Shown here in pieces: positions 4,570 through 64,000 of a stretch of DNA of 64,000 nucleotides. The DNA comes from a virus: positions 96,001-160,000 of IMG/VR virus record IMGVR_UViG_3300021963_009201. One strand, given 5' to 3'. Position 1 is the stretch's first letter. Every line of letters starts with the position of its first letter. A model generated the notes under the pieces. That model ran no database searches and was not told the origin of the DNA. It was given only the letters and a program-made list of their open reading frames with translations. A program made the translations under genes and the position numbers.

Positions 4570-5421
4570 ATGCCTAAAGCTAAGTCTAAACCAAAAAAAG
4601 ATATTTCAAATCAATACTATACGCTGACAGAAGACGAGATACAAGACCTCATTTCTAAGGCTAAAGATGGCGTATCTAGCGCTCAAATGGAGCTTCTAAA
4701 GATATTTGAGCCTTTCCTGAGTAAATATGTAACGCTATTGCACTATGGTAAGTATAAACTTTCTGATTATGATATACGTCAGTTTATAAACCTTTTCGTA
4801 CCAGATAAAATGGTTGGCTTTTACCTAAAGCGCAATAAGCTTAATTCTGTGGGGCTTTCTAAGGTCCAGGAAACCGTACAGGGAATTAGATATATGGTGG
4901 AACGCTATGGCGACGAGGAGGATACAAGGCAGACTGTTCATCTTGCATTTCTTCAATGCCTAATGAATTATAAGAGGACAGAGTCTAAAGCTGGAGGTTA
5001 TGTTCCTTTTAGCGGGTATATTTATAGTTATTTTTATTTTATTTTAAGTAAACATGTTAAGACATTCCTAATTGATCAGCTTGGTAGAAAAACTTTTCCC
5101 TTAATCAGTGATGAGGATTTTGGCGAAACAGAATCTGACGAAAAGCCTCAAGGGTTTACTGCCCCACCTGAACCTTCGGTGGAGGACTTACTAGGGCCTG
5201 AGATAATTGACGAATTTTGGGTAGCTGGTGATACGGTTATCTTCCCTTTCGATAGAATCACTATGCAAGAACGGCAACTTTTAAAGTGGAGATTTGTTGA
5301 TGGTTACAAATCGAGCGAAATAGCACAAAGAATAACTGAACACCCTAATACCGTAAGGGAACATTTTAATAAAATAAGACTTAAATTAATGGATGCACTA
5401 ATGGAGAGCGAACTCTCTTAA
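4570..5421 (+). CDS. phage sigma70-family factor
   Basis: Region 2-like segment (QTVHLAFLQCL..FSGY) and region 4 HTH (QERQLLKWRFVDGYKSSEIAQRITEHPNTVREHFNKIRLKL). Confidence 0.75.
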   Translation: MPKAKSKPKKDISNQYYTLTEDEIQDLISKAKDGVSSAQMELLKIFEPFLSKYVTLLHYGKYKLSDYDIRQFINLFVPDKMVGFYLKRNKLNSVGLSKVQETVQGIRYMVERYGDEEDTRQTVHLAFLQCLMNYKRTESKAGGYVPFSGYIYSYFYFILSKHVKTFLIDQLGRKTFPLISDEDFGETESDEKPQGFTAPPEPSVEDLLGPEIIDEFWVAGDTVIFPFDRITMQERQLLKWRFVDGYKSSEIAQRITEHPNTVREHFNKIRLKLMDALMESELS

Positions 5422-15967: not shown

Positions 15968-16300
15968 TTAAGCTCCTACTTTCCTCGAAAGAGCTGTGTC
16001 TATAATTCTTCCCAGCTCCCTTTTATCCTTATAACCCTTGTCATAAAGCATAGATATAATGGGTTTAGGGTCTAGAGATTTGTATGTTAATAACTGTAAG
16101 TTTAGGATATCGTTAAGGGAATAAATCCTATAGTTATTTAAATCTCTTTTAGATTCCGGATATTTTCCGGATTTTTCTCTATTAGCTATAGTTAAGGGTG
16201 TTACGTTCAATATTCTTGCTACTTCTCCACGAGTGAAGATTGGATTAGCTATAGCGCCAGATGCAATACTCATACAAAAACCTACTTTACTATATAACAA
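15968..16300 (-). CDS. MerR-type HTH DNA-binding protein
   Basis: FTRGEVARILNVTPLTIANREKSG..P..RDLNNYRIYS. Confidence 0.85.
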   Translation of the reverse strand: MLYSKVGFCMSIASGAIANPIFTRGEVARILNVTPLTIANREKSGKYPESKRDLNNYRIYSLNDILNLQLLTYKSLDPKPIISMLYDKGYKDKRELGRIIDTALSRKVGA

Positions 16301-16342
16301 TATACACTTTTTATATAGTAAAGGTTATATACAAATATGTAA

Positions 16343-50943: not shown

Positions 50944-51528
50944 TCAGACTGCAACTGGCGCAGCTTGGAACGAAGTGACTTCAGTTTGCCATTCATTTGC
51001 TTCATTGCGATGCCTCCTGTAACGACGCCCATCCGCGCCAAAAGTACCCGACCAAATTTGAAACAGCAACATCCAAAACGATGCCCATGCCATTGGCGTA
51101 AACTTAATAGCCACTGAGATAAGCATTAGGATAACTGACACAATAGACCCAATCATCGGGCCCGCCAAAGCGACCGATTGTAGATGATTTGGATCTTTAC
51201 CTTTGACAGTCGTACCGCCTAGCACACCATATATCAATGGAATGAAAAACGGAAGCAACGGCATTTGGCCTGTTTTCGCAGCTGCGAAATAATGACCAAA
51301 CTCATGGGCTGCCACAATAATCATAATGACAGCACCGAGCCATAATGGCAACATTGCATATAGTACAGCTGCAGTAGCAGCAGCAGTACCTAAGCAATAA
51401 GCGCCTTGCCAAGCAGCGCGCTTGATTTTCTTTGCGTTGAACTTATTACGCCATTTCATAAGCCAACCCCATTTCAGTGGCAAGATTGCGACTTCTGCGG
51501 TTGACATTTGAAAGCCATTTTTCTGCAA
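50944..51528 (-). CDS. minimal site-2 protease (peptidase M50)-like membrane protein
   Basis: AHEFGH in a TM helix, FIP, LAGP, distal DG. Confidence 0.75.
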   Translation of the reverse strand: MQKNGFQMSTAEVAILPLKWGWLMKWRNKFNAKKIKRAAWQGAYCLGTAAATAAVLYAMLPLWLGAVIMIIVAAHEFGHYFAAAKTGQMPLLPFFIPLIYGVLGGTTVKGKDPNHLQSVALAGPMIGSIVSVILMLISVAIKFTPMAWASFWMLLFQIWSGTFGADGRRYRRHRNEANEWQTEVTSFQAAPVAV

Positions 51529-61656: not shown

Positions 61657-64000
61657 TTACGAACGGCAGCGTTTGCAGACGCGACCACTTGCCCGGAATG
61701 CTTCCTTCTGTTCCTGCTTTGCCACGTAGTAGCTGGTGTTGCAGGAGACACAGGTGAGATTCCAGGTCCTGATGTCGTGGTAAACGTGGTGTGCATTTCC
61801 ATCGTCATCGATCGTCAGATCGGCAGCGATGTAGCCATAGTTGGCCAATGCATCCATCAGGTACCGGAACGGACCCACGTCACCGCCATCGGTATCGACC
61901 TGAGAGGTGATGACGAAGTTGTCGTTCACCTTGCCAGTCGACTTCAATGGCATGTCTTGGGCAGCCACGTACAGGGCGAGGAGCAGGAGATCTCGCTCAT
62001 CACCCTCACGCTGAAGGATTCCGGGGACAAGAAGCTTTTCATCTACTTCACCCTTCTTGTGCCAGAGTCCCTCTTTGATACCTGAACGGATACGGACCCA
62101 GGCCTCCGATGAGAGACCTTTGATCATCTCAGGCGGATTACCTTGACCCTTCCAATCATTCAGGGCTTGCTGGTGCTCTTCTTCCTTCCGAGCATTCTCT
62201 GCTGGAATCTGGGAACGGAAGTTCAGGACCAACTTTCTGGCATCGGCCATGATAGGACTACCATTGGGGAACAGTGCCCTGATGGATTCATCCACCAGAC
62301 CGTGGTTCTCCTGAGCGAAGATATTGATCTTACGATCGTACTTCACGATGGCATCCGTCATGGTCTTTGTCATGAGGGACAGCTTGTCATTGTCCACAAA
62401 GTTGACTCGATGACCCGGATTGTCCGACAGGAACTCCTTGAGCACCTTCTCGAACCCGAAAGCGCGAGTGGTATTCCAGTAGGCCTTGGAAATCGGACGA
62501 CCAGATGCGAGGACTTCACGGACAAGATTGGCCGAGTAGTTCAACACGAACTGGACATCATCCGGATCGGACGAATCTACCACATCGGACAGCATGCCCG
62601 GCATGGTAGATGGAAGGGTCTTGAACACCCAGCGATACAGGAATAAGCTGTTGATGTATGCACCGAGCGCAGCATTCTGCCCTGACAGTCCGCGGATCTG
62701 CTCTATGACATGGTCACGAGTCAGAGCCTGGATTTCAGTTTTGGCTGGCTTGCCCTGGCTGGGGAGCCCAGTGAAGGTGACGAGACCCTCACGGATGAGC
62801 TGACCCAGTGGCTTGGGCATCCGATCCAGGTCCGACTTGGCAGACATCTGGAACGCGAACGTTTCAGTGCCCTTCGAGTCGACGTGGCGGATTCCCTTGG
62901 CGCTCGTACGAAACATAGCATACGAGTCCATAGGCATACGCCATGCCAGGATCCGGTGGTTATTGCGCGAATCACGCACGGACATCACGGTGAAGTGATC
63001 ATCACCATCATGACCGCCAAAATCGACCGAATGATCAATCCAGTCGGAATCGCACAGGAACCACACATCGGCCCCAGGATGATACTCGATGAAGCCCTTC
63101 TTGGGGGTCTCCACCTTGTATCCCGCCAGGCGCAGCATCGAGACTGACTTAACAGTCTTGAAGTGAGCGTTTGGCAGAGGGAACCGAGGATGGCCATTGT
63201 TGTCGACCATGTTGGTACGATGGTTTATTGCCACCGAGGTAAGCATGGACGGAGAGGTACGGTAGTCGAAACCACGCGAAGCAGCTTCAACTACAGAGTA
63301 CCTGTTAAGCACCGTGTTTCCAGGAATGCCAAGATCCTTCATCTGTTTCCAAAGGAAGGATTCAACATCCGTGAAACGTTCGGTGAGTTCACCATTGATG
63401 ACCTGCTGGTAGGCATTCTCCAGATGGTCATTGAGTGACTTACTCAGCATGTCCTGAGTGAACAGCTGGGTAGTACCGTTGGTGACGGCATGGAACCACG
63501 CGAGGGCCTGGATGTTGCTGTAGGCCTCGTTCTTCCCACCATCAGGTTCGGCGATGATGAACCTCTTACCACCGTCAGTAACCTTGATGGCTGACTTGAC
63601 ATTGGCACGAGAGGTGTACACCATCACACCACCAGGGAGTTCACCACGAGCACGAATTGCATTGCCCTTGATAAATCCCTGCTCAGTCCACAGACGCACG
63701 TTCATCTCACGCACTCTGTTGACCTTGCGCTTGCGACGATCTGTCTTGAAGGGATCTTTGTTCCCATCGACAGACTGCACGAGCATGTCCCAGATGTCCC
63801 TAGACAGCACAAACATGCCATCAAGAATCATCTCGACTTCATCATCCGAGTAGGACGACAGGTCTTCATGCGAGAATGCCCGTACCTCATCTCCTTCGAG
63901 GATACGAACAGTGATGTCCATATCATCAGGAAGAGGGAGGCCGCAGGTGGTCGGACGGTAAGCTTGCTTCTCGTACTTACCGTGGTTCTTGCCATCTGTG
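61657..64000 (-). CDS. candidate single-chain two-barrel RNA polymerase (YonO/RdRP-like), 5' end beyond the window
   Basis: LDGMFVLS, R...GFIKG, YTS..NVK, FGGHDGDDHF, LGAYIN...SDVVD; frame stays open from 63921 to the window edge. Confidence 0.55.
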   Translation of the reverse strand, partial: TDGKNHGKYEKQAYRPTTCGLPLPDDMDITVRILEGDEVRAFSHEDLSSYSDDEVEMILDGMFVLSRDIWDMLVQSVDGNKDPFKTDRRKRKVNRVREMNVRLWTEQGFIKGNAIRARGELPGGVMVYTSRANVKSAIKVTDGGKRFIIAEPDGGKNEAYSNIQALAWFHAVTNGTTQLFTQDMLSKSLNDHLENAYQQVINGELTERFTDVESFLWKQMKDLGIPGNTVLNRYSVVEAASRGFDYRTSPSMLTSVAINHRTNMVDNNGHPRFPLPNAHFKTVKSVSMLRLAGYKVETPKKGFIEYHPGADVWFLCDSDWIDHSVDFGGHDGDDHFTVMSVRDSRNNHRILAWRMPMDSYAMFRTSAKGIRHVDSKGTETFAFQMSAKSDLDRMPKPLGQLIREGLVTFTGLPSQGKPAKTEIQALTRDHVIEQIRGLSGQNAALGAYINSLFLYRWVFKTLPSTMPGMLSDVVDSSDPDDVQFVLNYSANLVREVLASGRPISKAYWNTTRAFGFEKVLKEFLSDNPGHRVNFVDNDKLSLMTKTMTDAIVKYDRKINIFAQENHGLVDESIRALFPNGSPIMADARKLVLNFRSQIPAENARKEEEHQQALNDWKGQGNPPEMIKGLSSEAWVRIRSGIKEGLWHKKGEVDEKLLVPGILQREGDERDLLLLALYVAAQDMPLKSTGKVNDNFVITSQVDTDGGDVGPFRYLMDALANYGYIAADLTIDDDGNAHHVYHDIRTWNLTCVSCNTSYYVAKQEQKEAFRASGRVCKRCRS

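Follow-up and report, generated by a model that had tools for sequence, protein, structure and literature searches.

The open reading frame (ORF) that runs off the end of a 64,000-nt stretch of viral DNA (referred to throughout as the window; positions 96001-160000 of the 190,033-bp IMG/VR virus record IMGVR_UViG_3300021963_009201) raises the question of whether a phage can encode a single-chain RNA polymerase (RNAP) of the two-barrel class in which the metal-binding loop and the R-x-P motif associated with it are both differently arranged. A DxDxD loop together with an upstream RxP is treated as a universal signature of cellular RNAPs and their single-chain relatives and has been used as a search filter (PMC10770324). 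An earlier note on this DNA, made from the letters of the sequence, had proposed a single-subunit two-barrel RNAP with a non-canonical GGHDGDD loop, serving early transcription alongside a sigma factor. On the basis of residue conservation, a predicted structure and analogy with a characterized phage, we consider it likely that the 876-aa product of the complete gene is an active single-subunit two-barrel DNA-dependent RNAP and the non-virion member of a polymerase cascade.

Retrieval of the full gene, as the earlier note had recommended, gave an 876-aa protein encoded on the minus strand, as expected from the claim that the protein exceeds 754 aa with its frame open at the window edge. Within the window the ORF occupies 61657..63999, with its 5' end open and its stop codon at 61657-61659. 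The true start is the ATG at window-equivalent position 64285-64287, 287 nt past the window end, because a strong GGAGG ribosome site lies 5 nt 5' of this codon and the N-terminal sequence MxYPEKP that follows from it is common to all homologues; the in-window ATG at 63921, which would give the 754-aa product, is therefore not the start.

The class of the protein was established by structure comparison. An AlphaFold2 model of the 876-aa chain, built with a 48-sequence family alignment that reaches down to ~18-20% identity, had a predicted local distance difference test score (pLDDT) of 89.4 and a predicted template modelling score (pTM) of 0.86. When this model was compared with the PDB by Foldseek, there were 23 matches at E<=1e-3, all of them to QDE-1, plant RDR2, the P23-45-type gp64/gp62 or the crAss-like phi14:2 gp66. 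VIA-align, an all-against-all comparison over 48,161 chains that is independent of Foldseek, placed maize RDR2 at Z 13.5 (576 residues aligned, root-mean-square deviation 6.8), QDE-1 at Z 9.4 (about 10; 605 aligned), P23-45 gp64 at Z 9.1 (405/595 residues, root-mean-square deviation 5.0), P74-26 gp62 at Z 8.8 (402 aligned), P23-45 gp96 at Z 6.6-7.0 and phi14:2 gp66 at Z 5.8-5.9, with everything else below Z 5; the RDR2 and QDE-1 alignments spanned 576-616 residues. A second look with VIA-align agreed, returning only two-barrel RNAPs at Z 5.8-13.5. The proposal of a single-subunit two-barrel RNAP is thus supported by the top matches of two structure searches, which belong exclusively to that class. 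A palm-type 'GDD' viral RNA-dependent RNA polymerase (RdRP) and a Toprim/primase DxD site had also been considered as identities for the protein and were dropped, both structure searches having returned two-barrel RNAPs only.

The earlier note had held that the idea would fail if no pair of double-psi beta-barrels (DPBB) was predicted. The first, beta-subunit-like barrel was matched directly: designed and VCP-type minimal DPBB chains all aligned to residues 110-249 (e.g. 7dww_A, 80/86 residues, model 115-247, Z 3.2), and beta-like RNAP subunits mapped to the same part of the model (7ogp_C at 94-252; the Pol II second-largest subunit at 15-252). Two conserved basic residues, K207 and K231, lie inside this minimal-DPBB region and are presumably the spatial equivalents of the canonical lysines. 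The second, catalytic barrel was recognized only through whole-chain alignments.

When the sequence was examined across the family, the motif residues that had been singled out in the earlier note proved to be the invariant columns of the 48-sequence alignment, namely D156, G157, K207, G424, D427, D429, D430, R450, P452, G542 and D571. The acidic loop FGGHDGDDHF (residues 423-432) lies exactly where it had been placed, at window 62992-63021, and WRMP (residues 449-452, window 62932-62943) follows it as described. The remaining motifs, DGMFVLS (156-162), R198...G204-F-I-K207-G208, S226...K231, LGAYIN (541-546) and SDVVD (567-571), are present in the predicted order, although the dot-spacing given for two motifs was slightly off. 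Their invariance in so divergent an alignment shows that this set of motifs exceeds chance. GGxDxDD, followed 11-35 residues later by RxP, was found in 148/149 family sequences covering the site, so that the acidic loop is conserved in homologues; the glycine between the aspartates, however, is specific to the close clade, and the conserved form is GGxDxDD rather than GGHDGDD. The single exception, P0084 (968 aa), has the loop GGADNDN, in which the third aspartate is replaced by asparagine, while RSPN is retained downstream; inactivation of this copy, or a sequencing variant, may account for the change.

Both elements of the usual signature are therefore placed differently in this family. The aspartates are spaced i, i+2, i+3 as against the canonical i, i+2, i+4, and do not form a DxDxD. 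In gp64, YonO, QDE-1 and the beta-prime subunit the RxP lies ~35-45 residues before the aspartate loop (~43-45 in the first three), and the invariant RxP of the family instead follows it, R450-x-P452 lying 19 residues after the last aspartate. An RxPxP (R368-F-P-L-P372) is found on the N-terminal side of the loop like the ancestral 'Pro-gate', but more distant; at 59 residues before the loop it falls within the 20-100 residues that a published filter allows for an [RK]xP, but its arginine is conserved in roughly 70% of the family (by eye), being H, K, S, C or M elsewhere.

Comparison with QDE-1 suggests how such a centre might work. In QDE-1, D1007, D1009 and D1011 bind the catalytic cations, with a contribution from D709 of the other barrel to cation B, the R962-x-P964 'Pro-gate' binds 2'-OH groups both at the RNA 3' end and on the incoming nucleoside triphosphate (NTP), the bridge helix aligns the template and the trigger-loop residue D1116 positions the sugar (PMC9508822). 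From their order, secondary structure and conservation, we infer that the family invariants match D709, D1007/1009/1011, R962/P964 and D1116 of QDE-1 one for one. Our working hypothesis is that D427, D429 and D430, on a loop of the second barrel between a helix and a strand, would hold the catalytic Mg ions, that D156, K207 and K231 of the first barrel would complete the active site, and that an R-x-P loop, most likely that of R450-x-P452, would sense the 2'-OH groups at the RNA end and on the NTP that comes in. The helix 539-555 would serve as bridge helix, and D571 is a candidate trigger-loop aspartate; this helix and D571 are the putative, not the demonstrated, equivalents of the bridge helix and trigger loop.

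The topology of the catalytic region bears on which RxP is the gate. Secondary structure assigned to the model by DSSP comprises strand 374-381, helix 382-387, strands 399-403 and 408-411, helix 413-423, the loop, and strands 431-438, 444-450, 457-460 and 475-480, so that the metal loop sits between a helix and a strand in the model as in canonical RNAPs. Residues 259-358 are all helical in the model, and the usual first half of a catalytic barrel therefore cannot adjoin upstream. The model admits three readings of the strand order: a minimal barrel within 361-438, with the RxP hairpin added to it; a barrel that is completed by the post-loop strands (444-480) and hence re-threaded or permuted; or an arrangement in which the upstream RxP is still the gate. 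In local hhalign comparisons of both RxP segments with the Pro-gate segment of gp64, only the post-loop RxP aligned (E 0.037, 12 columns), a match too weak to count. At its C terminus the chain carries a CxxC...CxxC tail, modelled as four short strands, whose cysteines (C846, C849, C871 and C874) are invariant in the close family and present in the wide-alignment consensus; the listed RNAP alignments reach model residue 839 at most.

A second line of evidence comes from the same phage, in which a 1441-aa tail-module protein was aligned with the family profile by hhalign (probability 95.4%, E 1.9e-8, 238 columns). The alignment pairs GGPDFDD and RTP of the 1441-aa protein with the loop and the RxP, and includes two more collinear blocks containing FNVRI, KGN and EDVID; ten shuffles and the reversed 1441-aa sequence scored 14-20, compared with 76.9 for the real sequence. 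The invariant RxP is thus retained in the tail paralogue as RTP, and R368 is absent from it at the aligned position. The phage consequently has two paralogous two-barrel RNAPs, one of them in a tail protein. Four related 180-210-kb phages each encode an ~850-aa copy and a large tail ORF with GGFDLDD and, 22-23 residues later, RQP, so that possession of both copies is conserved across these phages. In P23-45, the virion protein gp96, which is fused to the tape-measure protein, transcribes the pre-early genes including that of gp64, the non-virion polymerase (PMC10770324). By analogy, the 1441-aa paralogue is probably delivered with the virion and would transcribe the first genes, among them that of the 876-aa polymerase, which would then transcribe early and middle genes from phage-specific promoters without host RNAP. 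The earlier assignment to early transcription is supported to this extent, but the tail paralogue makes the 876-aa protein likely to be the second, non-virion polymerase and not the first to act.

Among characterized enzymes, P23-45 gp64 (8F72; P74-26 gp62, 8F5M) and gp96 (8H2M/8H2N) share the single-chain two-barrel fold, a genome whose tail module and whose opposite-strand block of small early-type genes each hold one of two paralogous polymerases, and the lack of a Pfam model. No sequence or profile similarity to gp64 or gp96 was detected, so that the kinship is one of fold. These proteins have canonical DYDGD/DFDGD loops with RxP ~44 residues upstream, as opposed to DxDD with the invariant RxP downstream; gp64 has NRRP before DYDGD, and AVDRQKR at the place analogous to the SDVVD region. 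The studied protein also exceeds gp64 by 260 residues and has a larger helical connector, a post-loop beta-meander and the zinc-ribbon-like tail, and the genome that carries it belongs to a myovirus of ~190 kb that encodes DnaE and a tail sheath, whereas P23-45 is a long-tailed Thermus siphovirus. QDE-1 (2J7N, 7Y7P) and RDR2 (7W84, 7EU1) are the best whole-chain matches, with alignments that start in the N-terminal domain, take in both barrels and reach the C-terminal helical domain, and the active-centre residue set of QDE-1 is matched by the family invariants. Identity to these proteins is nevertheless 9-12%, QDE-1 has GGDYDGD with R962-x-P964 45 residues upstream, and their setting is eukaryotic RNA interference as opposed to a dsDNA phage. 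SPbeta YonO and phi14:2 gp66 (6VR4) belong to the same broad clade and are likewise single-subunit two-barrel transcriptases of phages; YonO has RSP 43 residues before DNDGD, in contrast to the post-loop RxP of the studied family, and gp66, according to a 2020 bioRxiv preprint, is a virion protein of 2166 residues whose loop is of the DFDxD type.

Several observations weigh against our interpretation. The metal loop of the family deviates from the DxDxD by which the class is defined. Taken alone, the catalytic barrel escaped recognition, all minimal DPBB chains having gone to the first barrel, and the isolated 340-492 fragment, modelled from a 28-sequence alignment drawn from DNA references, folded poorly (pLDDT 65, metal loop <50) and gave generic beta-meander matches only in a structure search. 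Comparison of the family profile by hhalign with gp64, the gp64 family and YonO gave nothing above shuffle level, the probability being 0.1-0.2% against gp64 and a five-member gp64 family profile and 0.2% against YonO. A tblastn search with P0002, P0025 and P0038 against 50,697 phage records detected no family member in cultured phages. An exact k-mer search of the minus-strand block for an early-promoter motif found tRNA-like words only, and the timing and virion packaging proposed above are read from gene position and the P23-45 analogy.

Coordinates of the features discussed (window positions unless marked as genome positions)
Feature	Position	Strand	Basis or remark
Gene for the 876-aa putative two-barrel RNA polymerase	61657..64000, continuing to window-equivalent 64287; genome 157657-160287	minus	ORF lists, translation
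First barrel DPBB-B (beta-subunit-like), residues ~110-249	63541..63960	minus	Minimal DPBB superposition; D156-G157 (63817-63822) and K207 (63667-63669) invariant, K231 (63595-63597) conserved in at least 90%
Catalytic barrel region DPBB-A, residues ~361-480	62848..63207	minus	Whole-chain alignments to RDR2, QDE-1 and gp64 extend over this region
R368-F-P-L-P372, semi-conserved RxPxP	63172..63186	minus	59 residues before the loop
Putative metal-binding loop G424-G-H-D427-G-D429-D430	62998..63018	minus	Family signature GGxDxDD; G424, D427, D429 and D430 invariant
R450-M-P452, candidate relocated 'Pro-gate'	62932..62940	minus	R450 and P452 invariant; 19 residues after the last aspartate
Bridge-helix-like helix 539-555 and SDVVD	62575..62673	minus	G542 invariant, N546 conserved in at least 90%, D571 invariant
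C-terminal CxxC...CxxC zinc-ribbon-like tail (C846, C849, C871, C874)	61666..61752	minus	Sequence and model
283-aa ORF with sub-threshold sigma-like signals	4570..5421	plus	HTH_16 21.5 bits (cut-off 22); Sigma70_r4_2 19 bits (25.7)
TTTACTATA(T/A)A-like word	genome 8807, 13374, 28888, 53761, 55730, 79761, 187010; window ~16288-16320 (genome 112288-112320)
Early-block rhomboid protease, peptide deformylase and RecA ORFs	genome 162996-163781, 165956-166543, 170602-171603

The genome in which the polymerase gene resides encodes a tail sheath, a collagen-like fibre, DnaE (Pol III alpha), DnaB, RecA, a peptide deformylase and a rhomboid protease, and the gene itself lies in an extended block of ORFs on the minus strand, most of them small. 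No sigma-70-like promoter was found on its strand. Ahead of many structural genes on the plus strand, at a distance of 25-45 nt, there is a TTTACTATA(T/A)A-like word that the minus-strand early block lacks; this candidate late promoter may be read by the host polymerase, with or without the product of a sigma-like ORF, or by the 876-aa enzyme. With regard to the sigma factor that had been expected to accompany the polymerase, HTH_16 and Sigma70_r4_2 signals were indeed present in a 283-aa ORF, which also scored 15 bits with Sigma70_r4, but these are sub-threshold and there was no match to Sigma70_r2 anywhere in the genome. From its sequence, this ORF is possibly a divergent sigma-like factor.

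These promoter data have to be considered in relation to the reading that the same 876-aa enzyme is the main middle/late polymerase, recognizing the TTTACTATA-like motif with neither host RNAP nor the sigma-like ORF involved. This is unlikely in our judgement, although the placement of the word ahead of structural genes and the failure to find a convincing sigma factor in the genome both favour it. The word is rich in A and T and looks like a -10 element, as in the T4-type late promoters that host RNAP uses. Furthermore, the late genes of P23-45 are transcribed by modified host RNAP (PMC10770324). The fact that the top Z-scores belong to the eukaryotic RdRPs RDR2 and QDE-1, together with the ability of QDE-1 to use DNA and RNA templates (PMC9508822), could also be taken to mean that the protein is mainly an RNA-dependent polymerase making antisense or double-stranded RNA, e.g. 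to regulate phage or host transcripts. We regard this as very unlikely: larger RdRP chains inflate the Z-score ranking, the characterized phage members of the clade (YonO, gp66, gp64 and gp96) are all DNA-dependent transcriptases (PMC10770324, in part), and pairing with a tail-module paralogue suits a transcription cascade.

That paralogue is also hard to explain if the protein is not a transcriptase but makes primers for the DnaE-type replicase, as a replicative primase or similar polymerase, a role that we judge highly improbable. The phage does have DnaE and DnaB, Toprim_2 was unmatched and a primase was absent among the scanned ORFs of the replication block, a search that was not exhaustive, a 400-aa ORF at genome 92577-93779, for example, being without a Pfam match. 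The polymerase gene is ~60 kb away from the replication block. There remains the suggestion that this is a catalytically dead two-barrel protein with a structural or regulatory role, in keeping with a loop that departs, in lacking DxDxD spacing, from the motif defining every characterized two-barrel polymerase and with the one family member that reads DxDN. We find this barely credible, in that the three aspartates, the aspartate and lysine of the first barrel, the RxP and the downstream aspartate are invariant at 18-20% identity, which is the pattern of an active site and not of a relic. An active, DNA-dependent, non-virion RNAP is thus the interpretation that we prefer.

The family to which this putative polymerase belongs is sizeable. 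There are 20 close relatives, at 58-98% identity, and 96 cluster representatives of the wider family at E<=1e-3 among 1.84 billion proteins searched, nearly all of 750-1000 aa; in IMG/VR the family is represented by 39 loci, many of them from contigs 170-270 kb long. In UniProt, the nearest viral entries carry the annotation 'uncharacterized protein, uncultured Caudovirales phage'. Neither the single protein nor the family profile had more than chance-level matches in searches of Pfam, PHROGs and PDB sequences; the Pfam RdRP family (PF05183) was not matched at E<=1, the sole Pfam line being a chance-level hit to SpoU_sub_bind, and the ESM Atlas search gave no usable match for the polymerase. 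One contig, IMGVR_UViG_3300042868_009074 (267,766 bp; loci L028 and L037), carries two different ~850-aa family members ~200 kb apart, which points to a third polymerase copy or else to an assembly that is chimeric or concatenated. Some family-bearing contigs (L061-L064) have been binned into metagenome-assembled genomes of Cyclobacteriaceae, Acidibacter, Limnohabitans and Saccharibacteria; these hosts are mutually inconsistent, and the contigs are therefore probably phage contigs swept into the bins. The taxa of these bins suggest a freshwater origin.

Other features of the genome were noted in passing. The ORF for the terminase large subunit (929 aa; genome 181098-183887, plus strand) has LAGLIDADG and intein-splicing signals, and therefore probably holds an intein. 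The G+C content climbs from 0.34-0.41 (window 28-50 kb) to 0.44-0.53 (50-64 kb), the polymerase gene lying in the G+C-richest part of the window. As well as the rhomboid protease, the early block contains genes for an M50-type peptidase (window 50944-51528, minus strand), a peptide deformylase (138 bits) and a cellular-type RecA (378 bits).

The two-barrel fold and the two-polymerase strategy are already known. A literature search for a DxDD RNA polymerase in phage found no paper, and the family, its DxDD loop and its downstream RxP are undescribed in the literature covered by that search. A published survey of RNAPs employed the filter [RK]xPx{20,100}DxDxD (PMC10770324, Supplementary Data 4), which would exclude the studied family. 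Our broader proposal, which we put forward tentatively and at slightly less than even confidence, is that this is the first two-barrel lineage with a rebuilt centre, in which DxDD replaces DxDxD, the RxP is supplied from a post-loop hairpin (by re-threading, circular permutation or a substitute) and the upstream RxP is decaying, and further that P23-45-type cascades are common in ~200-kb freshwater-type phages and that an unquantified share of phage RNAPs has been missed.

A family that is well conserved and probably active, and that departs from the accepted signature in both respects, tests how far a two-metal site can be rebuilt. At 876 residues the enzyme is compact and probably independent of host factors, and would suit mechanistic and structural study. 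The strategy of an injected polymerase followed by an early one would be extended from one Thermus phage group to separate ~200-kb phages. If our interpretation is true, motif screens that need [RK]xP...DxDxD are blind to such enzymes, and motif-based surveys would undercount phage polymerases.

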